From NCBI GenBank assembly GCA_001002325.1, contig LCNZ01000005.1:18274-82273 (forward strand): DNA of 64,000 nucleotides, read 5' to 3'. This DNA is from Candidatus Amesbacteria bacterium GW2011_GWB1_47_19 (GTDB lineage: Bacteria; Patescibacteriota; Microgenomatia; CAZETR01; Amesbacteraceae). How positions within the stretch are numbered: the stretch's first letter is position 1; each line of letters begins with the position of its first letter. The notes beneath the pieces are model-generated. The model saw only the letters and a program-made list of their open reading frames with translations. It was not told where the DNA came from and searched no databases. Positions 4,541-43,384 of this stretch are shown in pieces. The position numbers and the translations under genes are program-made.

Positions 4541-5161
4541 TTAACCGGTGGAAGTTACCATGTAGCGCTCGGAAGAGAGCATGTATTTCGCACCGGATTT
4601 ACCTACCTGGCCCCAATAATAACCCCGCTTGGAAGCTCGGGTATTGGCAGCGGCCAGCCATTGACGGGACGATTCAACTTTCTGACGCAGTCCTGATATA
4701 ACGCTTTTAAGGTGAATGTAAAAGTTTTTATGATAAACACCCGGCGAAGAGGGCATTTGAGAGGTGGCTTTCTGGACCTCGGAGGCAAAATCTCCGGCGG
4801 TTTTGGCAAATGCCAAAATTTCCTGCTTCAGAAGCTGAATTTGCTGGCGGATTTCAGCCTGTTTTTGGCGGGAGTAAGTTTCCTGTTGCTGGCGGAGTCC
4901 TTCCAGCTGGCGGGTGAAAGCCGCTTCAGCCTGTTGTTTACCCCGGTTTTCAGCCTGTTCAATTTGTGACAGGGAAAGAGACTCATTGGGATTTAAAGTA
5001 CCTGATAAACCAAAAGACTGCGGGAGGTCGGCCGAAAAAGCCTGTTTTACCTGGGTGGTGGCGTCGGACGCGAAATCTTTGCCCAGATCGCGCAGAGCTT
5101 CCAGGAAGTTGTCGTGAACCGGACCCTGCCGGCGGGATTTATGGGGTGTATTTGAGGCCAT
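4541..5161 (-). CDS. hypothetical protein, Q-rich coiled coil
   Basis: 206 aa ORF with a long Q/E/R-rich heptad-like region. No family recognised. Confidence 0.4.
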   Translation of the reverse strand: MASNTPHKSRRQGPVHDNFLEALRDLGKDFASDATTQVKQAFSADLPQSFGLSGTLNPNESLSLSQIEQAENRGKQQAEAAFTRQLEGLRQQQETYSRQKQAEIRQQIQLLKQEILAFAKTAGDFASEVQKATSQMPSSPGVYHKNFYIHLKSVISGLRQKVESSRQWLAAANTRASKRGYYWGQVGKSGAKYMLSSERYMVTSTG

Positions 5162-5187
5162 ACTATAGGGTAGCTAACGAAGCTATA

Positions 5188-5883
5188 TTATAGCATTCCT
5201 GTCAAAAAGTCCAGTGTGGCTTTGCGATCGGCCAATTGTTGCTGTTTTTGAATGTGCTGAAGAATGAATTCCACTTCCAGATCCGCCCGGGATTGAGAGG
5301 CTAATTGGCTTTTGAGAGTTTCGGGAGATAATTTTTTTGTCTGGAGATACTGGTCGATAGTCAGTCCCAGCCGGGTGATGTTTTCCGCCAGATTACTGAG
5401 CCGGTGGTTGGCTTCCTCCTCTACCAGCATATCGGGAATTTTGACTGATGAGTTATGGCGGAGAAGTTCGAGTTTGGCGGAAACATCCTTAATATCAGGA
5501 GGAAATTTGAGCGGGAATGACAGAGTAACAGCAGGAGATTCGCAGGTGAGGGCGGTGAATTGCCAATCCTGATCCTGTACCCCCTTATCGATATGAATGT
5601 GGGGATAAAGAATGGGTTTGAGCTGATGTTCGGCGACAGTCCGGGCATATATTTGGGGTAATAATTCTCTGACAGCTTCATTTAAGAGGCGGGATTTGTC
5701 GATAAGGGGTTCGACTAATTTCTTGGGAGCCGTGCCTTTTCTGAAACCGGGGACTTGGGCTGAACCGGCTGCTTTCTTTTCCTGATCCGAGATTCCTTTG
5801 GAAATATCGACCCAGGGGAGGATAAGCGTGATCTCGATGTTGCCATTTTCTAGTCGCCGGAGCTGTGAATCCGAATCGGGCAT
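5188..5883 (-). CDS. tig: Trigger factor (short form lacking PPIase domain)
   Basis: N-terminal ribosome-binding signature GFRKGTAPKK (canonical GFRxGxxP) plus a C-terminal helical arm. Only 231 aa, so the central FKBP domain is absent. Confidence 0.7.
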   Translation of the reverse strand: MPDSDSQLRRLENGNIEITLILPWVDISKGISDQEKKAAGSAQVPGFRKGTAPKKLVEPLIDKSRLLNEAVRELLPQIYARTVAEHQLKPILYPHIHIDKGVQDQDWQFTALTCESPAVTLSFPLKFPPDIKDVSAKLELLRHNSSVKIPDMLVEEEANHRLSNLAENITRLGLTIDQYLQTKKLSPETLKSQLASQSRADLEVEFILQHIQKQQQLADRKATLDFLTGML

Positions 5884-8754: not shown

Positions 8755-8760
8755 AATTTT

Positions 8761-8806
8761 GAGCGGCTAAGGGGAATCGAACCCCTGTCACCCCGCCATG
8801 GCGGGG
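8761..8806 (-). repeat. duplicated 3' 30 nt of tRNA-Gly(GCC) followed by 16-bp perfect palindrome
   Basis: 8761-8790 is identical to 9072-9101. It is immediately followed by CCCCGCCATGGCGGGG (8791-8806). Confidence 0.75.
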
Positions 8807-8816
8807 AGTTCAGCTA

Positions 8817-9065
8817 TTAACAAGTATTACCTAGTAACCGCTTCATGGCATTTCCGCCTTTGTAAGATTTTAGCACTTTTTCTCTTTGTTTAGCTTCGAT
8901 GGGGATGGAATATTCTTCTTTATAAATTAGGATCCACTCCCCTCTCCTGCGAGTTGAAATATTTTGACCACGATTGTGTTCGGATAGACGACGGGATATA
9001 TCGTTGGTACTACCTATGTAATGCCGACCTGAGTAAGTATTTCTGAGAATGTATGTATAGAACAT
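8817..9065 (-). CDS. GIY-YIG nuclease family mini-protein
   Basis: YTYIL...GRHYIGST...RRLSEHN, the GIY-YIG core and Arg/Glu-His motif. 82 aa. Confidence 0.8.
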   Translation of the reverse strand: MFYTYILRNTYSGRHYIGSTNDISRRLSEHNRGQNISTRRRGEWILIYKEEYSIPIEAKQREKVLKSYKGGNAMKRLLGNTC

Positions 9066-9072
9066 TCTAATG

Positions 9073-9143
9073 AGCGGCTAAGGGGAATCGAACCCCTGTC
9101 ATCTCCTTGGCAAGGAGAAGTTCTACCATTGAACCATAGCCGC
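9073..9143 (-). tRNA. tRNA-Gly (anticodon GCC)
   Basis: Acceptor gcggcta/tagccgc, anticodon loop ttGCCaa, T-loop ttcgatt. Confidence 0.85.
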
Positions 9144-9616: not shown

Positions 9617-9700
9617 TGGGCAAGAGAGGACTTGAACCTCCACTCCCTTGCGGGAACAGGCTCCTGAAGCCTGCGCGTCTGCCAGTTCCGCCACTTGCCC
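9617..9700 (-). tRNA. tRNA-Leu (anticodon CAG), type II
   Basis: Acceptor gggcaag/cttgccc, anticodon stem caggc/gcctg with loop ttCAGga, long variable arm, T-loop ttcaagt. Confidence 0.85.
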
Positions 9701-9945
9701 TAGAACTGATTCATGAGCTCCGCAATTATCTCACGTCCGAAACCGGATTTGAAGAATTTCTCAAGATTCCTGGCCTGTATTCTGGTATCGCACTCTTCGA
9801 CGTGAATCAATCGCAACGGCAAATGACCTCTTGTGGAGGGCGATTTACCACTTTCGTGTTGATACAGGCGTCTTTGTAAGTTGTTGGTTATCCCTTTGTA
9901 AATGAATTTATCCCCGTAACTTTGAAGGATATAAACAAAATACAT
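9700..9945 (-). CDS. GIY-YIG nuclease family mini-protein
   Basis: MYFVYILQS...KFIYKGITNNLQRRLYQHE. The stop codon overlaps nt 1 of tRNA-Leu(CAG). Confidence 0.8.
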   Translation of the reverse strand: MYFVYILQSYGDKFIYKGITNNLQRRLYQHESGKSPSTRGHLPLRLIHVEECDTRIQARNLEKFFKSGFGREIIAELMNQF

Positions 9946-9948
9946 GTT

Positions 9949-10073
9949 TGAAGCCTGCGCGCCTGCCTGCCGGCAGGCAGGTCTGCCAGTTCCGCCACTT
10001 GCCCTAGAACTGATTCATGAGCTCCGCAATTATCTCACGTCCGAAACCGGATTTGAAGAATTTCTCAAGATTC
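9949..10073 (-). repeat. direct repeat of 9665-9769 (GIY-YIG 3' end plus tRNA-Leu nt 1-36) with inserted 20-bp palindrome
   Basis: 13 + 92 nt are identical to 9665-9677 and 9678-9769. Perfect palindrome CCTGCCTGCCGGCAGGCAGG at 9962-9981 sits between them. Confidence 0.8.
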
Positions 10074-10194: not shown

Positions 10195-10278
10195 GCCGGG
10201 ATGCTGAAACTGGTAGACAGGCATGCTTGAGGGGCATGTGTCAGCAATGGCGTGGAGGTTCGAGTCCTCTTCCCGGCA
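10195..10278 (+). tRNA. tRNA-Leu (anticodon GAG), type II
   Basis: Acceptor gccggga/tcccggc, anticodon stem catgc/gcatg with loop ttGAGgg, long variable arm. Confidence 0.8.
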
Positions 10279-10282
10279 CACT

Positions 10283-10366
10283 GCCGGGGTGGCGAAATGG
10301 TAGACGCAAGGGCCTTAAGAGCCCTCGGTCCAAAAGACCATGCGAGTTCGAGTCTCGCCCCCGGCA
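10283..10366 (+). tRNA. tRNA-Leu (anticodon TAA), type II
   Basis: Acceptor gccgggg/ccccggc, anticodon stem agggc/gccct with loop ctTAAga, T-arm gcgagttcgagtctcgc. Confidence 0.85.
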
Positions 10367-10368
10367 CA

Positions 10369-10764
10369 ATGAGTTTTGAGTGTGTTAATTGTCATTACCT
10401 GGTACGGGAAGGTAAAAGATATGCCGGGACGGAAAACAGAAACCATTGCACGAAATGTTTGTGGTCATTGCATGCGGATTTAAGACCTGGTGACAGAAAA
10501 GCATTGTGCGGAGGAAAAATGAATCCCGCGGGGCTTACTTTTAAGCGGGTGAAAAAAGATAAGTACGGGAAAGAAAAGGTTGGAGAATTGATGCTAGTAC
10601 ACCAATGCGTAAAATGCCTAGAAGTATCAATAAACAGGATTGCGGCGGATGACGACCCGGTGGAAATAATGAATCTCGTAAATTCCGGTTTTTCTGTTGA
10701 AGGAATCAGTGTGCTGGATGAGGCTGACAGGTCGGAAGTACGCAGGCAGCTATTCGGGGTGTAA
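10369..10764 (+). CDS. RNHCP-domain zinc-ribbon protein
   Basis: Literal RNHCTKC signature plus additional CxxC pairs. The ATG lies 2 nt after tRNA-Leu(TAA). The ORF-track upstream extension from 10252 covers two tRNAs and is rejected. Confidence 0.6.
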   Translation: MSFECVNCHYLVREGKRYAGTENRNHCTKCLWSLHADLRPGDRKALCGGKMNPAGLTFKRVKKDKYGKEKVGELMLVHQCVKCLEVSINRIAADDDPVEIMNLVNSGFSVEGISVLDEADRSEVRRQLFGV

Positions 10765-10775
10765 AATTATAAACA

Positions 10776-10848
10776 CGGAGAGTGGCGCAGCTGGTAGCGC
10801 GCATCGTTTGGGACGATGAGGCCCCGGGTTCGAGTCCCGGCTCTCCGA
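10776..10848 (+). tRNA. tRNA-Pro (anticodon TGG)
   Basis: Acceptor cggagag/ctctccg, anticodon stem catcg/cgatg with loop ttTGGga, T-arm ccgggttcgagtcccgg. Confidence 0.85.
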
Positions 10849-10904
10849 CAAAGTTGAGGCGAAGTTTATTTTTAGCGTGAAATGGTTTAGGATATTGTCA
10901 GAGT

Positions 10905-11345
10905 ATGTGGAAAAAATCGTGGGGAGTGTTTGTAGGTGCGGGACTGGTAGCCGGTTTGTTGCCGGTGATGGTCTGGGGGGTTAGTTCCGGAACCAGGACA
11001 CTGTTCTCCACCCGGGCTCAGACACATGAACTGAGATTATGGTGGGAGCCGGCGGAAGCGACCCTGCGGATAGATCAGGCGATGAAATTTAAGCTGATGG
11101 CAAATGTTGAAAGTAAAAACGGAATTCCGGCACTGGAAATGGAATTGGATATCCCCAAGGGGATACTTGTAGCCCCGAAGATTGTCAGATACGGTAAACT
11201 TATCGGTACCTCAGTGGTCGGTGAAGTGGATGTAGTGGCGGTAAACCAGGGAGATTTTTTGATTGGTATCATAGAAGACAAAGTAGTTACCGGCTATCCT
11301 GATATCACCATAATAGCCTCTCCGGTAAAAATCAAAGTCAGGTAA
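10905..11345 (+). CDS. hypothetical secreted protein (first gene of pilin-like operon)
   Basis: N-terminal signal/TM. Ends 4 nt before the next gene. Confidence 0.45.
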   Translation: MWKKSWGVFVGAGLVAGLLPVMVWGVSSGTRTLFSTRAQTHELRLWWEPAEATLRIDQAMKFKLMANVESKNGIPALEMELDIPKGILVAPKIVRYGKLIGTSVVGEVDVVAVNQGDFLIGIIEDKVVTGYPDITIIASPVKIKVR

Positions 11346-11348
11346 AGT

Positions 11349-11795
11349 ATGAAGTTCAAGCCTGCCCTGTCCCTGATCGAATTATTGCTGGTAGTATCGC
11401 TGATCGGCATTCTGTCGCTGCCGGGAGTATTGGGAATAATTAATATCAGAGCCCGCCAGTCACTGGATGTATCTACTAACAAGTTTGCCGAGATTATGCG
11501 ACAAGCCCACATTTTTTCGAGGGAAAACAGAGAAAGTTTGAGTTGGGGAGTAAAAGGAACCGATAAGAATAGTTACCAACTGGTGACCCGGGATGCGACC
11601 AAGACAGTGACAGTCAGGGAAAAGCACAGACTGGAATCGCCGACAGTTTTTATAATTTATCCGTTTGAAGTGTGGTTTGACCAGGGAACGGGAAATACCG
11701 AAATCAACCGGATTTTCATGACCTATGCGTCCAAGGGCGGTACCCGAGTGGTGGGTTTGTCCCCGACCGGTTTAGTAGTTATCGGTATCCTATGA
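11349..11795 (+). CDS. Type IV pilin-like protein (prepilin-type N-terminal domain)
   Basis: N-terminus MKFKPA|LSLIELLLVVSLIGIL is a class III signal. Ala, not Gly, sits at position -1. Confidence 0.7.
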   Translation: MKFKPALSLIELLLVVSLIGILSLPGVLGIINIRARQSLDVSTNKFAEIMRQAHIFSRENRESLSWGVKGTDKNSYQLVTRDATKTVTVREKHRLESPTVFIIYPFEVWFDQGTGNTEINRIFMTYASKGGTRVVGLSPTGLVVIGIL

Positions 11796-12283
11796 AACCC
11801 CGGGCGTTTACAATAATTGAAGTTGTACTGGCGATAACTCTTTTAATCATTTTGGTAACCAGCGTATATCCCCTGGTGGGATGGATGAGAACCAAATCGA
11901 TACGTCTGCAATACGACAGCCAGGCAGCGCTGGTACTTCAGGAAGGGATGGAGGCGGCATACAGCGTTATGATGTCCGACTGGAGCGGCTTTCCTCCCGG
12001 ACCGGGTTATTTTTATCCGATAATTGATGCGTCTTCGGGAACACCAGTCTGGAAGCTGACTGCCGGAATACAATCTAATTATCAGGCCAGGTTTGAAAGA
12101 AAAATACTGATATCCCAGGTATGCCGGAGGCTGGTAACCGGTCAGATGGAAAATACTCCGTGCCAGGCCGATTATCCTGCCGATCCATACAGCCGGAAAG
12201 TTACAACCACCGTAAGCTGGAGGGAATCAGGAAAAACCAAGAGTATTAACGCCCAATTATTAACGGTGAGTATAAACCGATGA
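11792..12283 (+). CDS. Type IV pilin-like protein (prepilin-type N-terminal domain)
   Basis: MKPRA|FTIIEVVLAITLLIIL. ATGA overlap with the upstream gene. Confidence 0.7.
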   Translation: MKPRAFTIIEVVLAITLLIILVTSVYPLVGWMRTKSIRLQYDSQAALVLQEGMEAAYSVMMSDWSGFPPGPGYFYPIIDASSGTPVWKLTAGIQSNYQARFERKILISQVCRRLVTGQMENTPCQADYPADPYSRKVTTTVSWRESGKTKSINAQLLTVSINR

Positions 12284-12726
12284 AGAAGGGAATATCTCTA
12301 ATAGAATTGTTAATTGCCATGGCGCTGGCGGTGTTTGTATTTTTGCTGGTGATATCGATGCTGATGACAATACTAACGGCAAATGCCAGAAGCAGCCGGC
12401 AGGAGACGTTTGAGCAGACAAAAAACGATTTGCAGAGCGAGCTGACAAACGCTGTTAAATGGGGTAAGGATATCAGCTGGTCTTCAGGACAGCTGATCGT
12501 AGACGGTGTAGCGTATTCGAGGATCAGCAATGTGATAATAAAAAACGGACAGTTGTTGACGCCACCGCAAGTCAAAATCACCAACTGGACAATAACCGAG
12601 TTGGGGCAGGGAGATCCGAACATCAGTTTGCGCATGGAAATAGCTATGGAAAACGCAGCTAACAGCAGTATTAAAGACAACATGATTTTGACAGTTACAA
12701 AAAGGCAGACGATCATTGTGAAATGA
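12280..12726 (+). CDS. Type IV pilin-like protein (prepilin-type N-terminal domain)
   Basis: MKKG|ISLIELLIAMALAVFVF. ATGA overlap with the upstream gene. Confidence 0.7.
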   Translation: MKKGISLIELLIAMALAVFVFLLVISMLMTILTANARSSRQETFEQTKNDLQSELTNAVKWGKDISWSSGQLIVDGVAYSRISNVIIKNGQLLTPPQVKITNWTITELGQGDPNISLRMEIAMENAANSSIKDNMILTVTKRQTIIVK

Positions 12727-14021
12727 AAACCATGCGAAATACCAACGGTGTTGCTGTGATGATGCTGGTGCTGGTAGTGTCCATGATAGCGGCTTTTATG
12801 GCCATTGCCTGGCAGTCACGGATTTTATTGGGGGTATACAGGAATAAAGCCCTGTCGGACATTATTGCCGTTTCTTACCATGGGGAGTCCAAGGCCAATG
12901 ACATCCTGGGCAAATTCCTGGGAGATTATCCGGGGGCATTTACTTATAATTTTGAAACTCCATGGGAAGATTTGGGAGACGGAACACAATTGAAAGTCGA
13001 GGGAAAACTGATTGATAATAAGGAAACACTAAATATTACAGCCAAGCGAACGTATGCCAGCACCCAATATCAGGTTACCAGGGAGACGGAAACTTTTTCG
13101 GCGGAAGCTTCGGATGCCGAGATAGTATTTTCGCTGGACTGCACGGGATCCATGGCAGCTGCCGCTTGTGCGGATACAAATATTTGCAATTACCAGCCTC
13201 CCGGGAGTCCGTTTTACGCGATTACCAGGATGGACAAACTGAAAGAGGCCTTGATTGTTTTTCTGGACAAGCTGGAAGCGCTTCCAGGGCATGAAAAAAT
13301 AAAGATCGGACTCTCAGTGTTTACATTAAAGAGCGACTGGATGTATACCAGCTACGCTGCGGACGGAACCCCGACCGGACAGGCAATAAAACCCGATAAT
13401 GCGATATCGTCAGATATTCCGGCTATTAAAAGCGCCGTCAATAACTTTCTGGGAAGAAGCGGTGAAGAGCACAGTATGGCTTGTAAAAAAATTCTGACCT
13501 TTACGAATGTAGGAGGGGGACTGATTTTCGCCCATGACTACCTGAAGACCAGAAAACCACTGGGAAAGAAACAGATAGAAATATTGGTTACCGACGGCTG
13601 GTCTAATCAGAGAACTCCACACGCGGGATGCAGCCAAAATATTTTTTGCCCCGGGGATGCGATTTATTGCAGCGGCTATGGTTATACCTGCCCGGTTCCA
13701 TTACCGAACTGTCAGATGCATGGTTGGGAGTTTACAGCCTGTGCGCTGGCAAGTACCCAGCAACAATGGCAACCTATATCTTTTGCGTCCGATCCCTGGC
13801 CTGTCGGAGTACGTGACCCTGAGGTTGATATGTATACGGTGGGTGTATATTCTGATCCGCCTAATTATATAAATTCGGCATTCACCAATTTTTCAAATAA
13901 GTATTTTCAGAATGATGAGGCTTTTCAATTACCGGTTATATTGTCGGATATTTTTGATGAAATATTAGAAAGTTTTACAGTAATTAATGTTCAGCGACTG
14001 GTACCTTCGCCGATAAGATAA
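12723..14021 (+). CDS. von Willebrand factor type A domain protein with N-terminal TM (pilus-associated adhesin-like)
   Basis: MIDAS motif DCTGSM (DxSxS) and downstream TDG. N-terminal hydrophobic helix. ATGA overlap with the last pilin-like gene. Confidence 0.7.
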   Translation: MKTMRNTNGVAVMMLVLVVSMIAAFMAIAWQSRILLGVYRNKALSDIIAVSYHGESKANDILGKFLGDYPGAFTYNFETPWEDLGDGTQLKVEGKLIDNKETLNITAKRTYASTQYQVTRETETFSAEASDAEIVFSLDCTGSMAAAACADTNICNYQPPGSPFYAITRMDKLKEALIVFLDKLEALPGHEKIKIGLSVFTLKSDWMYTSYAADGTPTGQAIKPDNAISSDIPAIKSAVNNFLGRSGEEHSMACKKILTFTNVGGGLIFAHDYLKTRKPLGKKQIEILVTDGWSNQRTPHAGCSQNIFCPGDAIYCSGYGYTCPVPLPNCQMHGWEFTACALASTQQQWQPISFASDPWPVGVRDPEVDMYTVGVYSDPPNYINSAFTNFSNKYFQNDEAFQLPVILSDIFDEILESFTVINVQRLVPSPIR

Positions 14022-14046: not shown

Positions 14047-14088
14047 GCGGGTGTAGCTCAATGGCAGACCTGCCTGTCGGCAGGCAGG
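14047..14088 (+). repeat. 5' 22 nt of tRNA-Gly(TCC) followed by 20-bp near-palindrome
   Basis: 14047-14068 gcgggtgtagctcaatggcaga is identical to 14341-14362. Then CCTGCCTGTCGGCAGGCAGG at 14069-14088. Confidence 0.75.
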
Positions 14089-14108
14089 GAGCCAGAACTT
14101 TGATTTTA

Positions 14109-14327
14109 ATGAAAAGGTATTTTGTATATATCACCCGCAGTAAATCAACCGGCAGATTTTATACCGGTATGACAAACGACTTGCAAAGAAGGTTAAAACA
14201 GCATAACCGACTAACATCAAATACCCTTGCTACAAGGAAATTGACCGACTTTGAAATTGTTTACAAAGAAATGCAACAAAGCAGAGCAGAAGCAAGAAAA
14301 GTAGAGAGTTTCGTGACAAAATTGTAA
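14109..14327 (+). CDS. GIY-YIG nuclease family mini-protein
   Basis: MKRYFVYITRSKSTGRFYTGMTNDLQRRLKQHN. The ORF-track start at 14061 lies inside the tRNA fragment/palindrome. The ATG at 14109 is preferred. Confidence 0.75.
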   Translation: MKRYFVYITRSKSTGRFYTGMTNDLQRRLKQHNRLTSNTLATRKLTDFEIVYKEMQQSRAEARKVESFVTKL

Positions 14328-14340
14328 AATTCGGTAGCAT

Positions 14341-14411
14341 GCGGGTGTAGCTCAATGGCAGAGCGCCAGTTTTCCAAACTGGTGACGAGGGTCCGATTCC
14401 CTTCACCCGCT
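14341..14411 (+). tRNA. tRNA-Gly (anticodon TCC)
   Basis: Acceptor gcgggtg/cacccgc, anticodon stem ccagt/actgg with loop ttTCCaa, T-loop tccgatt. Confidence 0.85.
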
Positions 14412-14561
14412 CAATAGCGAAATGGTTTTGTGTTTTCTCCAATTTTCCTCAAGAAATCGATCTTTTCCCGAGTTCTAGCCACCATTTTTAGCGTTTTATC
14501 TTTGGCCTGGAAAAAATCATACCGGTAACCGGAGTCGGACCTAATTTGTAGAAAAAATGAG

Positions 14562-21841: not shown

Positions 21842-22807
21842 TTAGCGGAGATAGAAGAAGGATCCGGTAGTGATGAATACCAGGGCTGCCAATCCCAGGA
21901 TAAGTGTGGTCTGCATAGCCCCGGTTTGCGGCAAATTGCCGTCAGGAGTGGTGACAGAGACAGGAGTACGGGTAGGCGTAGGTGTTAAATCATTGCCGGT
22001 GCAGACACAATCGATATTGTAGGGACATGCCGGTGCCCGGCAATAACCCTGGAAACAATAAAGACTTGATTCGCAATTGGTGTTGTTGCCGCAGGAACCG
22101 CCACAGGAGTTGGGGTCACCAGAACCGGGGGAATCTGTAGGAGTAGCTGAGGGAGACGTCGGTGAGGTGGGTTCCGGTGTGGACGAAGGGGCGGCGGAGG
22201 GTGCAGGGGAGATAGAAGAAGAAACAAAAGTATATTCACCGGTGGAGGACGGAGTCAGCAGAACATCCTGGCCGTCAGATTTTCTGGTAACGATACTTTG
22301 CAGAGGATCGAATGTCAGGATAACGGGATTTACGACAGGAATATCACTGGACGTCAGATTGAAAGTGGCCAATGCAACTGCGGTATTTGAACTATATCCT
22401 TCAGTGGCGGTATTTAAGCAGGCTATATCGATTGTTACTATACCATTGGACGAGTTGGGGGATTTGACAGGACATACCCAGTCGTCGGAATTGCGAATGA
22501 CTGAACTGGTCTGGATATTGGATACAACTACTTCAGGCGTTTCACCACTGTATTCGAATTTAATCCGGGCGGAAACACCGGAGATCGGCAGACCGGCCGG
22601 ATCCAGATAGATGGTGACAACCTGGGACAAATTAACAGGAATACTGGCGGTGGCCGGAGAAAGTGAGATAGTGGCCTGACCGGCGGGAGTAGAGGCTTTT
22701 TTGGAGAACAACTGACGCTCACGGATAAGATAAACACCGGCAAAAGTTGCTAGCAGAACCACTAAAACCACGACAAGCGAAATGATGATTTTTACCGAGG
22801 CGCGCAT
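21842..22807 (-). CDS. Cell-surface protein: N-terminal TM, cohesin-like domain, S/T/P linker, Cys-rich module, LPQTG sortase signal
   Basis: C-terminal LPQTG plus a hydrophobic stretch ending ...YLR. N-terminal domain carries ARIKFEYSG...TIDIACLN motifs shared with 22822 and 23418. Confidence 0.55.
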   Translation of the reverse strand: MRASVKIIISLVVVLVVLLATFAGVYLIRERQLFSKKASTPAGQATISLSPATASIPVNLSQVVTIYLDPAGLPISGVSARIKFEYSGETPEVVVSNIQTSSVIRNSDDWVCPVKSPNSSNGIVTIDIACLNTATEGYSSNTAVALATFNLTSSDIPVVNPVILTFDPLQSIVTRKSDGQDVLLTPSSTGEYTFVSSSISPAPSAAPSSTPEPTSPTSPSATPTDSPGSGDPNSCGGSCGNNTNCESSLYCFQGYCRAPACPYNIDCVCTGNDLTPTPTRTPVSVTTPDGNLPQTGAMQTTLILGLAALVFITTGSFFYLR

Positions 22808-22821
22808 AAAGACAGAATAAC

Positions 22822-23421
22822 TTATTTAAGAATCAAAATCTCGGGAAAAGTTGTCAGAGAGATCTCTTCCCCGCGCTTACTGACCACTTTTGTGAGGGCG
22901 GAATCGAGGCTAAGAGAGAGGTTGGGAATGGCGGTAAGAGCAGTAATTTCAAATGTGGCCATATCGACCGGACCTTCGGGGATATAGCCTTCGGGAGTGA
23001 CATTAGCTGCTGCAAAATCAATGTTCACCTGTTTGTTGACTTTATCTATCTCGACCTTGTTGATCGGAAACAACCACCCGGCATCCAAAAGAGACTTATT
23101 GGATTTGGTCTGGACACCAGTTTTTAAGGTATCGGAGTCTGCAATTTTTATGTCCGGTTCATCGCCAGTGTAGTTATATTTAATCCGTGCTGCAAGTGCG
23201 GCCAGTTTAATTCCCTTGGCGTTAAGTGTCAGACTGACAGTGAGCTTATCACCCTTTGAGTTTAGAGATCTGATGAAGGGGGTGGGTGTAGGTTTGGGAA
23301 TTGAGGTAGCCTGAACAACAGCCTGACCTGAAGGGCTAGATGTAGATGGTTTGTAGGTTGATTTAAGAGCATACAAACCAACCAGCGCAGCGACAGCAAA
23401 AACAAGTACAACTATTTTCAT
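22822..23421 (-). CDS. Secreted cohesin-like domain protein
   Basis: Signal/TM plus a single domain with ARIKYNYTG...NIDFAAANV...GY...ATFEI motifs. Confidence 0.5.
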   Translation of the reverse strand: MKIVVLVFAVAALVGLYALKSTYKPSTSSPSGQAVVQATSIPKPTPTPFIRSLNSKGDKLTVSLTLNAKGIKLAALAARIKYNYTGDEPDIKIADSDTLKTGVQTKSNKSLLDAGWLFPINKVEIDKVNKQVNIDFAAANVTPEGYIPEGPVDMATFEITALTAIPNLSLSLDSALTKVVSKRGEEISLTTFPEILILK

Positions 23422-25721
23422 GGATTGTCTCCGAATACTTCTAATTGAGTGTAATTGCTTAATACTATAGCAATATCCGTGATAGTAATAAAGTTGTCGG
23501 CATCTATGTCGTATATCATATTTTCGGAAAAGACTGGAACGGCTAACTCTGTGTAGTTGCTGATCATCAGACCCAGGTCAATAATGTTGAGAATGTTGTT
23601 GTCATCAAAATCACCAGCCATCATTTCCAGTGATGCCCAAGCGGCGGGGCCGACATTGAGGCCGAAGACGAATCTTAGAGTACCCAGCCTTTTTTGCAGG
23701 TATCCGGGACCTTTGGAGTAGACATCATAGTTGGTACCGAGGGAAGAAATAGGAGACTGGGCGATGTCTATGGGAGCATCGGAGTTGAAGACTCCGTTGA
23801 TGGTACTGGTCATGGTGTGGGTATAGGTATAGCCGTCAAAAGCGTTTACCAGGGACGGGTTTACGCTACGGTTTACGAGAGATCTGGTAACCCCTTGCAT
23901 CCTGACCGAGTAGCGGAAAGTGGAAGGAGGAGGTTCGGTGGGGTAAGGAGTGTCTGTAGGATACGGAGTTTCGGTGGGGTAAGGAGTGTCTGTAGGATAC
24001 GGAGTTTCGGTGGGGTAAGGAGTCTCAGTCGGGGCCGTGACAAACGTATAGACAGGATTGGACGGAGGAATGAGAATATTACGTGTAGGACTGGCTTTGG
24101 TCATAACTTTAGTCTGAATCAGATCGTAAGTCAGGCGTACGGGGTTGGTAGGAGGTACGGTGAGCGCGTAAATATAGAACCTGACAATGGGCTGGCTGAC
24201 GTTGCTGGTATAGCCCACCGTGGAGGTATTAGTGGCAGCGAAGTCGATGGTTACCCGGCCATTTGCGCGTGAAACTGAATTGACGGGGAAAGTCCAATAG
24301 GGAGAACTATCAAACGGATCAACGGTGGTAATCTGGTAAACTGGGTTACCGAATTGGTCTGTAATATCCACTTCAACATCACCCGTGGCACTATACGGGT
24401 ATGAAAGCCGGAAACTAAGGGAGGAGATGGCCTGTCCTCCGGTATTGAGGCTGATGGTGATAGGAAACGCTTGGGTGGTTGGTTTGGTAGCGGTGAGCGG
24501 GTTTGTAGTTAGAGTGGCGGATCCAACGACACCAGTCGGAGTAGCTGAGGGAATGGGTGCGACGGTGGCGGTACCTCCAGGTAATGTCGGCACGACGGTG
24601 CCGGTACCCCCTGAGGGTTGTACTATAACGGAATACATACCCACAATGGTCGTGGGGTCATTGGGGCCGAGAGTGACAGTCTGACCAGCCGAAAAATCGC
24701 GTGAAAGCAGACTATATGTGGTAGGTTCACTATTAACCATATTCAGTCCGGTATCGGTATAAGCTGTGGTCCAGGACGGCCGGCCGGTAATACGATCATC
24801 GAACGCCAGATAGACAATTGCATGACTGGCAACGGTAAAAGTAGCCAGAGGGCTAGTGTTGTAGGAGCGGGAAACTTGAGCGGTGCGGATCCATTGCGAG
24901 CCTAAGACCAGAGAAGGAATAGTAGACCAAATATAGGTCCGATCTCCATATTGAGTGGAACCCACTTGAAGATTATTCTGGATGGACCAATTGACAGCAT
25001 TGGCTGAATCGTAAACTACCAGATTGGAAATCAGGGATCCGGGACCCGGGGTGGGTGTGTTGGTGCCCTGAATAGTAACATCAGCGGGAGAGGTAGAAAA
25101 AACGAGGTTAGTGCTAAGGTCGTTAACCAATTGGGAGTTGGGGGCATTGATGACAATTTGGGTAGGAACCGATTGGCCTTGTTGGAGTTTAAATGCCACC
25201 GGGAAACTGGCGGCTTCGATCAGGCCGGATTGGGCAGGGGGTTTGGGATCGCATTGACCCTGAATAGGATCACATAACGCCAGGGCAAAGATAACCCTGC
25301 CTGTGGAGTTGGCATTAGCCATGGTTGTTTTGGAAATAATAGCCGGGAACAAGGAAGTGGTGGTAACATCACCGGTTAACTGGATCAGGCTCTGGTTAAA
25401 GTTTAATTCGACCAGGATAAAACCAATCATGTGGGCTTTGGCATCGACCATCACTTTTACTGTTTGATTCGGAGGAAGAGTAAAAGATGAAGCGCCGGAA
25501 GAGCTGGTAACGTAAATATGCGGATCGGTGGCGGCGGCGCGGGAAGGCAGTTTGATGCCACCGGTCTTGAGGATATAAACGGCAACAGGAAGACTGAGGG
25601 CAAGAATTACCAGGGCGGCGATTTGGAGAAACAGCGGGAGCCGGACAAACTTTCCACGTAAGCGGTCAAAAAAACTTTCTTTAGGCAAAGACGGAGTCTC
25701 TTCCGACAAGTCTTTTTTCAT
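23418..25721 (-). CDS. Large surface protein with cohesin-like domain, (TPYPT[DE]) repeats and C-terminal dockerin-like double Ca-binding repeat
   Basis: C-terminus has DFDDNNILNIIDLGLMISNY followed by DIDADNFITITDIAIVLSNY, two DxDxDN-type repeats. Internal segment carries FRLSYPYSATG...VTIDFAATN. N-terminal TM. Confidence 0.55.
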   Translation of the reverse strand: MKKDLSEETPSLPKESFFDRLRGKFVRLPLFLQIAALVILALSLPVAVYILKTGGIKLPSRAAATDPHIYVTSSSGASSFTLPPNQTVKVMVDAKAHMIGFILVELNFNQSLIQLTGDVTTTSLFPAIISKTTMANANSTGRVIFALALCDPIQGQCDPKPPAQSGLIEAASFPVAFKLQQGQSVPTQIVINAPNSQLVNDLSTNLVFSTSPADVTIQGTNTPTPGPGSLISNLVVYDSANAVNWSIQNNLQVGSTQYGDRTYIWSTIPSLVLGSQWIRTAQVSRSYNTSPLATFTVASHAIVYLAFDDRITGRPSWTTAYTDTGLNMVNSEPTTYSLLSRDFSAGQTVTLGPNDPTTIVGMYSVIVQPSGGTGTVVPTLPGGTATVAPIPSATPTGVVGSATLTTNPLTATKPTTQAFPITISLNTGGQAISSLSFRLSYPYSATGDVEVDITDQFGNPVYQITTVDPFDSSPYWTFPVNSVSRANGRVTIDFAATNTSTVGYTSNVSQPIVRFYIYALTVPPTNPVRLTYDLIQTKVMTKASPTRNILIPPSNPVYTFVTAPTETPYPTETPYPTDTPYPTETPYPTDTPYPTEPPPSTFRYSVRMQGVTRSLVNRSVNPSLVNAFDGYTYTHTMTSTINGVFNSDAPIDIAQSPISSLGTNYDVYSKGPGYLQKRLGTLRFVFGLNVGPAAWASLEMMAGDFDDNNILNIIDLGLMISNYTELAVPVFSENMIYDIDADNFITITDIAIVLSNYTQLEVFGDNP
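23931..24040. repeat. three tandem 36-bp repeats encoding TPYPTETPYPTD
   Basis: ttcggtggggtaaggagtgtctgtaggatacggagt appears three times in tandem, inside CDS 23418-25721. Confidence 0.8.
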
Positions 25722-33251: not shown

Positions 33252-34796
33252 ATGATATCGGCGGAATTAGAGAATTATCTGAAGAATTGCCGGGACAGCG
33301 GAGCCAAGTTTGACGAGGTGGAAAAAGCACTTTCTATACAAGGTTATTCTTCAAACCAGATATCTGAGGCAGGACAGTGGTACAACCCGGTCGTCCCCAA
33401 AACAAAAATCCGGAAACCGCTGGCGGTGGTACTGCTGATGCTGGCGATATTTTTGTTGGCGGGAACGGGGGCGGCTGCATATCTGGTAGCCGCGGAAAAA
33501 ATTAAAATAAACAACCCCGGACTGGTAGTGGGAATCCAGAAGGTGGTATACAGTATCCCCTTTGTCCCCAAAACGCCCAAGATGGTGATTTTGAAGGCAG
33601 TGGAAGCACATAAAAAGATTTCCCGGAATACCTGGGAACTATCAATCTCCGGAAGAGGAATGGGATCGGAATTGGGGGAAATTTTCGGATCCGACACCAC
33701 GGACCTGCTTATTTCCGGTTATTCGGACTTTTCCGATTCGGAAAACGTCAGGTTTAAAATATCAGCAAATCTGGGGAAAGAGGTGCAGGTCGAACTGCGG
33801 AAGAAAGACAAAATACTGTATGCAAATGTATCCAAGATGCCGTTGGCTATATATGCATTTATCGGATTGGAACCGGATAAAGTAAAGCTGATATTGGCCA
33901 ACTGGATAGCGATAGACGTTTCGGGACTGAATACGGAGGCCAGGAATTTATTGTCGGAAATTCCGGAAAGCAGCAGACAGTCACAGACGCAGGAAACGAC
34001 ACAGGAAATATTGGAGAAGTTGCTGAATGAAGAAGTCATTCCCCTGTCAAGCATGACAACCGATAAAAGCCAGGGATATGCGGTCTATAAAATTGTATTT
34101 AGGGCTTCACCGGAACAATTGGACAGAATTGAAGAGGCGGCGGGAACAGATCCGGGCAGGCTGAAATTTTCAGAATGGCTGAAGAACCCGGTGATTACTC
34201 TATTCATAGATAAGGAGAAGAATCTGGTAAGAAGGGCGGAAGCGACCTTCACTATAGATTACGACCAGCCGGAAACGTCGATTCCCCTAATAGGCAGCGG
34301 GGAGGAAAAGGCGGATGTGGCAGTGGTATTAAAATTGGACAATTTCGGGGAAGAGATGATCATTGATGTTCCGGATAAATCACTGACTCCCGATGAATTT
34401 TACCAGATGGTGATGGATGCGGAACCCGGGGGATTATTGACGATTAACCCCGATAGACAGTTAGCCCGGGTACGGGATGCCAAAAGAAGGGCGGATATTT
34501 CCGCCATACTATCCGCAACTTACCAGTTTACGGCCGATAACAGAGGGATATTACCGGTGACGATAGGGACGGAGGCGAAAAAGATATCCGAGTCCGGGGC
34601 GAATCTGTGTAAATACCTGGTACCGGAATACCTGGCTGCATTTCCCATTGATCCGAGACAGGGAGACGGTAAGAATTTTGTGAATTGCCCGAAAGGGTAT
34701 GATACCGGATACACGATTTTTAAGGATAAAAACGACAGGATTACAATTTTGGCACCCATGTCCGAAGGGAATGAAATAGTTACGGTTACCCGGTGA
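33252..34796 (+). CDS. membrane protein with cytosolic N-domain, one TM, large extracytoplasmic region ending in a pilin-like (GspG-like) globular domain
   Basis: C-terminal RVRDAKRRADISAILSATYQFTADNRGILP...DPRQGDG...GYDTGYTIF follows the pseudopilin head-domain pattern. Confidence 0.4.
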   Translation: MISAELENYLKNCRDSGAKFDEVEKALSIQGYSSNQISEAGQWYNPVVPKTKIRKPLAVVLLMLAIFLLAGTGAAAYLVAAEKIKINNPGLVVGIQKVVYSIPFVPKTPKMVILKAVEAHKKISRNTWELSISGRGMGSELGEIFGSDTTDLLISGYSDFSDSENVRFKISANLGKEVQVELRKKDKILYANVSKMPLAIYAFIGLEPDKVKLILANWIAIDVSGLNTEARNLLSEIPESSRQSQTQETTQEILEKLLNEEVIPLSSMTTDKSQGYAVYKIVFRASPEQLDRIEEAAGTDPGRLKFSEWLKNPVITLFIDKEKNLVRRAEATFTIDYDQPETSIPLIGSGEEKADVAVVLKLDNFGEEMIIDVPDKSLTPDEFYQMVMDAEPGGLLTINPDRQLARVRDAKRRADISAILSATYQFTADNRGILPVTIGTEAKKISESGANLCKYLVPEYLAAFPIDPRQGDGKNFVNCPKGYDTGYTIFKDKNDRITILAPMSEGNEIVTVTR

Positions 34797-40365: not shown

Positions 40366-41673
40366 TCAAATTTCAGACAGGAATTCCCGTTTGCGGTGGA
40401 GATGGTGGAGGCGGCGGGAAAAGCGATGGGCTTCGTCCCGCAGGCGAATTAAAAGCTGTAGACCCGGATGATAACGAGGCAGGTTAATTTCGGTAAAGCC
40501 GACGGGTGAAGGAATAATCAGGGTTTCGATGCGTTTAGCGAGGGCGAGGATAGGGATTAGGTTATAGGGGTTAGGGTCCAGATTTTTCAAAATACTTAAC
40601 TGGGGTTTGCCCCCATCCAGGACTATCAGGTCCGGGGCAGGCCAATCGGTCCGTTTGAGACGACGGTTAAGAATACCCAGAAGAGATGCCACATCATCGG
40701 CTGAATCGGGGGTACGAACAGTAAAATGGCGGTAATCCCGGTGAGAAATACGACCGTCTACAGCTACAGCCATGGCGGCAGTAGCTGACCCGCCTCTCAG
40801 ATGCGATACATCGTACATTTCAATCCGTTTCAAGGATTTGAGATAGGGTAAGCAGGGATTCAGAATTTGAATTAGGGAGGCCAGGGCTTCAGATCGCAGG
40901 TCATGAAGTAAATTGGGGTTTTGCAGATAAAGATCCGGTGAAGACGGAGGGTGCTGTAAATAGTTAAGGGCAGTCAGACGGTCACGCAACAGGGCAGCCG
41001 ATTCATAATTCTGATTTTTAGACGCTGTCGACATGGCTGTCTCCAGTTGCCGGTTAACAGAAATGAAATCACCTTTGAGCAGACGGCGCAAACGGGCTAT
41101 GTTTTTTCGGTAATCGAGAATTTGTGGCGGTGACAGGACATCTCCGGGACAAGGACGACAGAGACCTAAATGGGAGTACAGACAGGGACGTTTGACCGGC
41201 CGGGGTAAGCTGCAGAAAGGCGTAACGGTACGGAACCAGCGCAGGATCCGGGAAGGTAAACGGCGGTTGAGGAAGGGACCGGCAACGGCCAGGCGGGATT
41301 GGTGATTGATCAGGGGGCGGGGAAATTTTTCGCGGGTAAGATGTATATGGTACGGTGTTTTGTCATCTTTGGACACCGAGTTGAATCCGGGTTTGAGTTT
41401 TCGGATTAAACTGGATTCCAGGAGCAAAGCTTCGACTTCGGAAATGACCTCAATATATTCCAGGGAAATGATACGGCTAACAAGAAGCGAAGTTTTAGGA
41501 CCCAGGCGTACAGGAGATTGAAAATAGGATTTAACCCGGTTTTTAAGGTTTTTGGCTTTGCCGACGTAGAGGATTTTGCCTGCGGCGTCTTTGAAGAAAT
41601 AGACTCCAGGTGCGGTAGGCAATGAGCGCCACAAAGATGAGCGAGACGGCCGTAAAGATGATAAACGCGACAT
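40366..41673 (-). CDS. uvrC: Excinuclease ABC subunit C (short form)
   Basis: N-terminal GIY-YIG domain PGVYFFKDAAGKILYVGKAKNLKNRVKSYF and the UvrC endonuclease region. The 5' 131 nt overlap the upstream transglutaminase-like ORF, so the true start may be an internal TTG. Confidence 0.85.
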   Translation of the reverse strand: MSRLSSLRPSRSSLWRSLPTAPGVYFFKDAAGKILYVGKAKNLKNRVKSYFQSPVRLGPKTSLLVSRIISLEYIEVISEVEALLLESSLIRKLKPGFNSVSKDDKTPYHIHLTREKFPRPLINHQSRLAVAGPFLNRRLPSRILRWFRTVTPFCSLPRPVKRPCLYSHLGLCRPCPGDVLSPPQILDYRKNIARLRRLLKGDFISVNRQLETAMSTASKNQNYESAALLRDRLTALNYLQHPPSSPDLYLQNPNLLHDLRSEALASLIQILNPCLPYLKSLKRIEMYDVSHLRGGSATAAMAVAVDGRISHRDYRHFTVRTPDSADDVASLLGILNRRLKRTDWPAPDLIVLDGGKPQLSILKNLDPNPYNLIPILALAKRIETLIIPSPVGFTEINLPRYHPGLQLLIRLRDEAHRFSRRLHHLHRKREFLSEI

Positions 41674-43384
41674 ACCAACCCAGGAGCAGCCGGGCAGGGA
41701 TATTATATGTCACACCAGCGCTACCGGCGGAAACTAGAAGAGATTTTGGAGAAATATCAGGAATATATGATGAGAATAATGACAGGGGATAGGTTTGGCT
41801 GGAAAAAGGCGGCATTACACCCAGGTCAGAAGGAGGAACGGGGGAAATATTCAGATTTTCGGGTTTGAGCAACAGCCGGGGATGATTTACTGACTGACCG
41901 GAGGGGTTGGAGATCCTGAGGTCCGAAAAAAATATCGGCAGGGGAAGAATCTGGAAAGGCGGAGTCCAGGAAATTGAAAGGGAGGGAGGTAGATATTCAC
42001 GGAATTTGGACAAAGTAATTTCTACATCCCGGGAACTGGAACCGGTATCGTAGAGACCGGCCGCGACAGGATAGGAAGCGTCGACACCATGAATGGTAAA
42101 TGCGAAGTGATTGAAGTCAAATTTAGAAAAATAATCCAAACCCCCGGTGGTGTTTTCCCAAGTGGGATCAACACTAATCCAAGCCCCAGACTGGCTGTCC
42201 CAGTATTCAGGCCAAGCGTGAAGAATGTCTTGCTGGAGACTGAGGGGACGGAGGCGGCTGTCCGTGGTATATGCGTAACCGTTCAGCTCCCTGGCAGGGA
42301 TACCGGCCGCATGGGCAAGGGTGATGAAAAGATCAGTAAAGTCCTGGCAGCGGCTTTTTGATGGGTCATCGAGGATTGCGGACGATGTACGCCGGGAGGC
42401 TGCGGGCCCGATTTCGGAATAATCGTAATCCAATAGTTTGACTACGTAATCATAAATATCGCGGGGCGTACGATGTTTTTTGACCAGATCTGCAATCCGG
42501 TCATCTGAAACAATCCAGTAATCCGAAGGCTGTGTGTAAACTGACAAATCAGTAGGCGGGTCCGAAACCGCACCGGGTTCAGCCAGCAGATGAACCTGCC
42601 CGGAAGCAGTAACTTTCAGTTCCTGACCGGCGGTCAGTAAATACTGGGCCAACCAGTTACCATCGGCATCAGCCAGGACATTTTGGGGGGCGGGATTTAA
42701 CGAATCGTAAAATACTTTTTGATATGCGGTATCCGGAGGTAAAGCTATCTCGGTAAGAATCGGCTCGGAACGGGTATTGGTAAGCGGGTAAGACAGGCGG
42801 AAATCAAAAACCTGAAAATTGCCAAACGCTGCGGAAATACCTACGGAATCCGCAACTGAGGGGGAGAAGAGATAAACATTGTCAACACTTTCGCGGATTG
42901 ATGACGAAGGCGGAGGGGATATATAAGCCGGATCTCCGAATGATGAAGGAACAATCAGGCGGAAATCATGAGAGATTCGGGGAAGGTTAATTTCCCAAAT
43001 CTGGCCCTTTTTAACTGCGGGCTGGCCTTCGTAACGGATAGTAAAAACGCGGGTCTGGTCTTTACCCACCAGGGGTGTGGGAAATTCGATGGTAATAAGA
43101 TATGTGTCCGATCCCTCGGAAACTGTAGTGGTTTTGAGCGGCCCACCGGTATCGGAGGCGGAAAAGTTTTTTGGCAGCTCGCCGGAAAACTTCAGCTGAT
43201 AAGAAGGAGCGTAAATTTTGGACTGCAGGTTGGTGAGTGTTACCTGCTGGGTAACTGCAGAGATACCGGAGGAGGCGAAACGATAATCCATGGAGACGGT
43301 AGATTCGAAATTCGCTGCATGAGCGGAGGAGAGGGTGAGGGTAAGGAATTGAAAGACAAACAGAGAGAATAATCGATACCGCAT
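41543..43384 (-). CDS. Transglutaminase-like domain protein, secreted with C-terminal TM
   Basis: Cys-His-Asp core CQDFTDLFITLAHAAGIPAR...HAWPEYW...D. Signal peptide and C-terminal TM with basic tail. Confidence 0.7.
   Translation of the reverse strand: MRYRLFSLFVFQFLTLTLSSAHAANFESTVSMDYRFASSGISAVTQQVTLTNLQSKIYAPSYQLKFSGELPKNFSASDTGGPLKTTTVSEGSDTYLITIEFPTPLVGKDQTRVFTIRYEGQPAVKKGQIWEINLPRISHDFRLIVPSSFGDPAYISPPPSSSIRESVDNVYLFSPSVADSVGISAAFGNFQVFDFRLSYPLTNTRSEPILTEIALPPDTAYQKVFYDSLNPAPQNVLADADGNWLAQYLLTAGQELKVTASGQVHLLAEPGAVSDPPTDLSVYTQPSDYWIVSDDRIADLVKKHRTPRDIYDYVVKLLDYDYSEIGPAASRRTSSAILDDPSKSRCQDFTDLFITLAHAAGIPARELNGYAYTTDSRLRPLSLQQDILHAWPEYWDSQSGAWISVDPTWENTTGGLDYFSKFDFNHFAFTIHGVDASYPVAAGLYDTGSSSRDVEITLSKFREYLPPSLSISWTPPFQILPLPIFFSDLRISNPSGQSVNHPRLLLKPENLNISPVPPSDLGVMPPFSSQTYPLSLFSSYIPDISPKSLLVSAGSAGVTYNIPARLLLGWYVAFIIFTAVSLIFVALIAYRTWSLFLQRRRRQNPLRRQSQKP

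Follow-up and report, generated by a model that had tools for sequence, protein, structure and literature searches.

A probable minor-pilin cassette with a von Willebrand factor A-bearing tip pilin in Candidatus Amesbacteria

We analyzed a 64-kb stretch of DNA (the window, to which all positions below refer unless a locus is named) from the ultrasmall Candidatus Amesbacteria bacterium GW2011_GWB1_47_19, a groundwater genome of the Microgenomates within the candidate phyla radiation (CPR). The subject of the analysis is a cassette of five consecutive genes, here called O1 to O5. We consider it likely that this cassette encodes the core minor-pilin set of a type IV pilus, i.e., the set that primes the fiber and forms its tip, and that O5 is a tip pilin carrying a von Willebrand factor type A (vWA) domain. 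A first-pass annotation, made from the letters of the DNA without database searches, had proposed a minor-pilin set with a vWA tip adhesin. That proposal is supported by the family matches of the proteins, by a metal ion-dependent adhesion site (MIDAS) in O5, by the predicted structure of O5, and by linkage of the cassette to PilB, PilC, and PilM genes in two related genomes.

Pilin-type genes of the cassette

On re-reading, the five open reading frames (ORFs) run co-directionally on the + strand from 10905 to 14021, exactly as first described (Table 1). The O2/O3, O3/O4, and O4/O5 junctions overlap by ATGA. Such overlap had been claimed for every junction, which holds for three of the four; O1 and O2 are separated by a 3-nucleotide (nt) gap (TAA-AGT-ATG). 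Since four-base overlaps are also found at three further co-directional gene pairs in the window (22822/23418, 36736/37098, and 27106/28014), those in the cassette signal an operon and nothing more exotic. Scans for promoter and terminator consensus sequences gave no excess over shuffled sequence. We concluded that O1 to O5 most likely constitute an operon conserved in CPR/Microgenomates bacteria.

Table 1. Positions of the cassette genes and of the MIDAS residues of O5 in the window
Feature	Position (nt)	Strand	Description
O1	10905-11345	+	146 amino acids (aa), first cassette gene
O2	11349-11795	+	148 aa, probable GspH/FimU/ComGD-type prepilin
O3	11792-12283	+	163 aa, probable GspI/PilV/ComGE-type prepilin
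O4	12280-12726	+	148 aa, probable GspJ/PilW/ComGF-type prepilin
O5	12723-14021	+	432 aa, predicted bimodular pilin with vWA module, GspK/PilX position
O5 MIDAS loop 1, D139-C-T-G-S-M144	13137-13154	+	DxTxS variant of DxSxS
O5 MIDAS residue T261	13503-13505	+	
O5 MIDAS residue D291	13593-13595	+	

Class III prepilin N-termini had been reported for three of the genes, and they can be read directly in O2 (MKFKPA/LSLIEL), O3 (MKPRA/FTIIEV), and O4 (MKKG/ISLIEL), where the slash marks the predicted cleavage site. Each has Glu at +5 followed by an uncharged hydrophobic stretch (about 20 residues); position -1 is Gly in O4 and Ala in O2 and O3. A six-frame scan of the window for the class III motif returned seven matches, and the only genuine N-termini among them were those of O2, O3, and O4. 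The other four were rejected because no hydrophobic stretch follows the short leader. The count of three pseudopilins was nevertheless too low, as O5 has a fourth pilin-type N-terminus that had been overlooked (MKTMRNTNG/VAVMMLVLVV...), with a short basic leader, Gly at -1, and no Glu5. Gly occupies position -1 in 69 of 70 O5 relatives and is followed by about 21 hydrophobic residues (residues 10 to 30). Position +5 in this family is I, L, V, or M and never Glu.

The Ala residues at -1 in O2 and O3, already pointed out in the first-pass annotation, stand up to scrutiny, this being the sole register that places Glu at +5. Among the loci described below, the O2 family has Ala at -1 in three of eight (the window, L002, and L010) and Gly in the remaining five; the O3 family has Ala in the window alone and Gly in the other eight of nine. 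Bacterial prepilin leaders have been reviewed as "invariably" Gly-terminated (PMC4471445). In Streptococcus sanguinis PilE1, G-1A leaves processing and assembly unaffected and G-1S blocks processing (PMC6497953); a similar G-1A result for Pseudomonas aeruginosa pilin is cited in the same study. By analogy with this normal handling of G-1A (PMC6497953), natural Ala at -1, though unusual, would need no special peptidase or explanation. It is conceivable, but on balance unlikely, that its recurrence stems from a CPR prepilin peptidase whose specificity is relaxed in an archaeal-like way.

For the typing of O2, O3, and O4, orthologues from nine additional loci were brought in and every family member was scanned individually. 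All eight members of the O2 family matched TIGR01708 (GspH; best E value, 4.4e-10), seven matched PRK10506, and four matched ComGD. The O3 family matched ComGE in nine of nine members (best E value, 6.9e-9), PilV in three, and GspI in two. For O4, the matches were to PRK10557 (8/9), ComGF (7/9), HpsC (five members), and GspJ (one member). Recorded N_methyl or TIGR02532 matches are present in some orthologues of O2 to O4. Scanned singly, the window proteins gave sub-threshold matches only (N_methyl, GspH, GspI, ComGE, and ComGF, with PRK10506 also for O2). In the PDB, the O2 family profile matched many type IV pilins of solved structure along their alpha1 helices, and PDB searches with single O2, O3, or O4 sequences gave weak N-terminal matches only. 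Along the cassette, the family matches follow the order H, I, J, which is the canonical order of gspH-I-J-K and comGD-GE-GF-GG. We concluded from these comparisons that assignment of O2 to the GspH/ComGD type, O3 to the GspI/PilV/ComGE type, and O4 to the GspJ/PilW/ComGF type is probable rather than proven.

In two O4 orthologues, those of L008 (8910-9989) and L009 (9059-9967), there is an additional ~150-aa module matching PA14 (PDB 6qdi; E value, 1.9e-72). The PA14 domain is generally linked to carbohydrate binding. These modules indicate that the pilins of the cassette gain different ligand-binding modules in different lineages.

The vWA-bearing fourth pilin-type protein

The NCBI annotation of O5, for an identical sequence, is hypothetical protein UX91_C0005G0042, and O5 on its own had no sequence match in Pfam, NCBIfam, or the PDB. 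Word-indexed homologue searches recovered only three to four relatives. An exhaustive profile search of 1.84 billion proteins yielded 116 representatives, mostly of about 400 aa and matched over their full length. We aligned 77 sequences of this family (alignment A2). VWA_2 matched 47 of these 77 relatives (best E value, 2.4e-11) and VWA matched 29. Searched against the PDB, the family profile matched PitA, SpaC, GBS104, RrgA, BatB, and S. sanguinis PilB.

The MIDAS motif first noticed as DCTGSM in the last gene corresponds to O5 residues 139 to 144; the MIDAS of O5 is complete, and its residues are nearly invariant in the family. D139 is conserved in 77 of the 77 sequences, T/S141 in 77 (T in 63 and S in 14), S143 in 74, T261 in 73, and D291 in 76. 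O5 has 10 Cys residues. One of them, C140, falls within the MIDAS loop (D-C-T-x-S) and is conserved in 76 of 77 relatives, and C254 is near-invariant; their conservation, in the region of residues 140 to 340 (13140-13742), hints at a disulfide beside the metal site. The cassette of L002 is directly followed by a DsbA/thioredoxin gene (4787-5878). Cys-rich insertions adjoining the MIDAS vary among relatives, reaching about 170 aa in the relative P0003. Together with the PA14 modules of the O4 orthologues, these variable insertions are pointers to ligand binding at the tip.

An AlphaFold2 model of O5 built from the 77-sequence alignment had a predicted local distance difference test (pLDDT) score of 91.2 and a predicted template modeling (pTM) score of 0.82; a model built from three sequences only (pLDDT, 45.7) was discarded. 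The model consists of a helix (residues 8 to 66), three strands (89 to 121), and an alpha/beta domain (132 to 426) that includes a C-terminal strand (420 to 426). These elements form two modules, a pilin module with an alpha1 helix and a small beta-sheet (residues ~1 to 125) and a vWA module (~132 to 426). Structure prediction, which had been recommended as a check on the vWA protein, thus returned a vWA domain with a pilin module in front of it. The structures closest to the model are pilus-tip adhesins. Judging from sequence and model, the most fitting description of O5 appears to be that of a pilin in the K/X position onto which a vWA module was grafted or into which it was inserted.

The cassette resembles the GspH-I-J-K set of the type II secretion system (T2SS), the FimU-PilV-PilW-PilX set of type IVa pili, and the ComGD-GE-GF-GG set in having four consecutive small pilin genes, with family matches, all of them below curated cut-offs, in the order H, I, J. 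It differs from these core minor-pilin sets in the extra conserved non-pilin gene, O1, in front. Absence of Glu5 is a hallmark of the tip pseudopilin GspK. Like GspK, O5 is the last and largest subunit (432 aa versus about 150 aa), lacks Glu5, and has an extra domain; this domain is a vWA in O5 and an alpha-domain in GspK, and O5 is not demonstrably a member of the GspK family.

P. aeruginosa PilY1 has a vWA domain at its N-terminus. The PilY1/PilC proteins of type IVa pili share the logic proposed here, with an adhesive vWA domain at the tip alongside minor pilins and a gene in the minor-pilin operon. However, a reading of the last gene as encoding a PilY1/PilC-like accessory did not hold. 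PilY1 and PilC are not pilins and have a C-terminal beta-propeller (IPR008707) as their defining feature, whereas O5 has a pilin-type N-terminus (Gly at -1, no Glu5) and neither a match to that propeller nor its fold, and membership in this family was therefore rejected.

The closest solved analogue of O5 is S. sanguinis PilB (PDB 7b7p; PMC8179133), a type IV minor pilin made of two modules, one of them a vWA. In that study a vWA modular pilin serves as a tip adhesin, and the authors describe GspK as a modular tip pilin (PMC8179133). The two proteins are about 15% identical. The class III signal of PilB is canonical and includes Glu5 (IPR012902), unlike the N-terminus of O5; the PilB gene lies away from those of the four core minor pilins, whereas O5 takes the fourth (K/X) position within the set; and O5 has DCTxSM in place of DxSxS and, in addition, conserved Cys-rich insertions. 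Within the CPR, PilX1 and PilX2 of Nanosynbacter lyticus TM7x are likewise minor pilins whose signal peptide is noncanonical and which have gained an effector domain at the C-terminus (PMC12206443). These PilX-type modular minor pilins, PilX2 among them, are required for host binding (PMC12206443), a parallel to the ligand binding at the tip proposed here. Their added domains are a beta-jelly roll and a beta-propeller, and they belong to Saccharibacteria rather than Microgenomates. The tip adhesins SpaC, RrgA, GBS104, PitA, and Mfa5 of sortase-assembled and type V pili also contain vWA domains, but they are assembled by sortase or strand exchange rather than in the manner of type IV pilins and have no alpha1 helix.

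We propose the following mechanism. The four prepilins would insert into the membrane, and a prepilin peptidase would cut the short leader after the Gly or Ala at -1. Via their alpha1 helices, the four subunits could then assemble on the PilC platform as a priming complex, from which a PilB/PilC/PilM machine, with its genes at another site, would begin to polymerize the major pilin. As PilB adds major pilin, the complex would be lifted to become the pilus tip. O5, lacking Glu5, would cap the fiber and expose its MIDAS-bound Mg2+ or Mn2+, whose coordination would be completed by an acidic residue of the ligand. Because cultivated CPR bacteria are episymbiotic, such a ligand would most plausibly be found on a host cell's surface.

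Conservation of the cassette and rival explanations

Ten independent loci, drawn from other genomes and from metagenomes, share the gene order and motifs of the cassette, with pairwise identities to the window proteins of 23 to 46%. All five genes are present in L002 (GCA_964463725.1), L004 (a metagenome contig), L006/L007 (GCA_040959955.1 and a sequencing-run assembly), L008 (Woesebacteria UBA5941), L015 (GCA_964524515.1), and L009 and L010 (metagenome-assembled genomes labeled Gammaproteobacteria). L003, from Gottesmanbacteria, has O2 to O5 and lacks O1. The cassette is partial in L001, a metagenome contig, and L005 is a metagenome contig fragment with two O5-type genes. A search of the genome collection with a six-sequence alignment found three loci. 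L009 and L010 are titled "uncultured Gammaproteobacteria bacterium," yet they carry a cassette otherwise seen in Microgenomates, and the taxon label is probably that of a mislabeled bin.

A sortase gene, a T2SSE gene (PilB with an MshEN domain), and a T2SSF gene (PilC) are located about 6 kb downstream of the cassette in L006/L007 and L015/L016; in L016, a PilM_2 gene comes after PilB/PilC. Between the cassette and PilB/PilC, both L006 (11267-16846) and L015/L016 contain a DUF2292 gene, several genes for very large Asn/Ser/Thr-rich repeat proteins, and the sortase gene. The intervening genes may encode further components of a surface structure. In CPR genomes, PilB, PilT, PilC, PilM, PilN, PilO, and PilD are reported to be widespread, and PilQ to be absent (PMC6744442).

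The N-terminus of O1 is basic, and the protein contains a single hydrophobic helix (~21 residues) that includes a conserved Pro; its beta-rich domain (~110 aa) bears the conserved motif ELR(I/L)WxEP. This motif was defined in alignment A5, which comprises the seven loci window, L002, L004, L006, L008, L009, and L010; a 155-aa gene at the O1 position in L015 is not part of it. No family match to O1 was found in Pfam, NCBIfam, or the PDB, and O1 did not resemble the other surface protein of the window (22822-23421). A cohesin-like domain was considered for O1 and dropped, as no evidence supported it. The earlier description of O1 as secreted was not established. Because the single N-terminal helix exceeds the usual length of a cleaved Sec signal, anchoring in the membrane is no less likely than secretion. 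From its sequence features, O1 may be a membrane-anchored or secreted accessory protein; our guess is that it is an assembly or anchoring factor specific to the tip complex.

Several results weigh against a type IV pilus minor-pilin set. No cassette protein of the window reaches a curated Pfam or NCBIfam threshold. The Pfam N_methyl (PF07963) scores of O2, O3, and O4 are 15.0, 18.1, and 15.1 bits, all below the cut-off of 21.2, and the scores behind the H/I/J typing lie under the curated equivalog cut-offs and come mainly from the N-terminal halves. O5 matches none of the GspK, PilX_N, and N_methyl models, and no such match occurs among the family matches. Neither the window nor the 10 kb past either end (~84 kb in all) contains PilB, PilC, PilD, PilM, or a major pilin. 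A search for PilB homologues returned Woesebacteria-type proteins only, and no Amesbacteria protein, among the best 120 matches. In addition, tblastn with Woesebacteria-type PilB, PilC, and sortase gave no match in the window or the other loci.

Some of these results could be taken to mean that the ORFs are decayed, nonfunctional remnants or that their motifs are chance resemblances, since the window proteins fall under every curated threshold and no assembly genes are nearby. We regard this as extremely improbable. Conservation of the cassette already contradicts it: five intact ORFs are found in the same order in many genomes at 23 to 46% identity, the functional residues are conserved, and the O5 model is of high confidence. 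It is also improbable, to a lesser degree, that O5 is a membrane-anchored vWA protein of the BatA/BatB kind, with a plain signal anchor and merely adjoining the pilin genes. The missing Glu5, the lack of a match to N_methyl or any other pilin model, and the presence of BatB-type vWA proteins among the O5 profile matches speak for such a protein.

A third explanation, unlikely but the least so of these, retains the pilins and changes their use: the cassette would supply the tip for a short pseudopilus that takes up DNA (Com-like) or secretes protein (T2SS-like), rather than for a long, adhesive type IV pilus, with the vWA domain serving a structural or substrate-handling role. The best family matches of O2 to O4 do include ComGD/ComGE/ComGF and GspH/GspI/GspJ, and type IV pilus and competence genes have been discussed together as widespread in CPR (PMC6744442). 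However, the structures nearest to O5 are pilus-tip adhesins, and the PA14 module in O4 orthologues points to ligand binding at the tip. A strict T2SS is not expected in CPR bacteria, which are without PilQ and apparently without an outer membrane (PMC6744442). The two functions are, moreover, compatible, and one pilus could serve both. We concluded that a core minor-pilin set with a vWA tip pilin is the likely function of the cassette.

Neighboring features and significance

Upstream, the cassette is bounded by a tRNA-Pro gene (10776-10849); downstream, it is followed by a small GIY-YIG-like ORF and a tRNA-Gly gene (14341-14412). Small GIY-YIG-like ORFs lie among tRNA genes at 8817-9065 (-), 9700-9945 (-), and 14061-14327 (+), and a counterpart in L014 is an 81-aa gene with a Pfam GIY-YIG match. 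The first two are bordered by exact direct repeats that duplicate tRNA ends, one of 93 nt (9677-9769 = 9981-10073) and one of 31 nt (8760-8790 = 9071-9101). Together, the ORFs and repeats look like mobile GIY-YIG elements inserted beside tRNA genes. A GIY-YIG gene is also found near the cassette in L003. An RNHCP-domain protein is encoded at 10252-10764 (+); because its listed GTG start overlaps tRNA-Leu genes, the true start is probably an internal Met.

Three consecutive Pro/Thr-rich surface proteins of 321, 199, and 767 aa (21842-25721, -) had no Pfam match at an E value of <=0.01; the largest has terminal repeats that appear dockerin-like by eye. A 613-aa transglutaminase-like surface protein (PF01841; E value, 2.2e-15) is encoded at 41543-43384 (-). 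A 514-aa protein (33252-34796, +) has an internal hydrophobic helix, and its last ~110 residues (ARVRDAKRRADISAILSATYQFTADNRG...) resemble the globular part of CPR pilins by eye; it has no class III signal and no Pfam or PDB match.

The CPR, or Patescibacteria, make up a very large and mostly uncultivated share of bacterial diversity. Those members that have been cultivated live attached to host cells and need type IV pili. Our analysis proposes a function for the O5 family, which comprises 116 representative clusters labeled "hypothetical" and without a Pfam domain. Censuses of modular pilins that demand a canonical N-methyl motif would miss this family; such under-counting was anticipated by the authors of the S. 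sanguinis PilB study (PMC8179133). The system extends known principles, combining a core minor-pilin set with a modular vWA pilin, and is not a new kind of system. It is conceivable, and we put it forward as speculation that may well be wrong, that the cassette is a Microgenomates-wide host-recognition module whose tip effector domains (vWA with variable Cys-rich arms on the K-type pilin, PA14 inserted in the J-type pilin) are swapped by lineage and set the host range. For the Amesbacteria, Gottesmanbacteria, and Woesebacteria in which the cassette is seen, O5 is a concrete candidate adhesin, a vWA-tipped pilin, and O2 to O4 are its candidate partner pilins.

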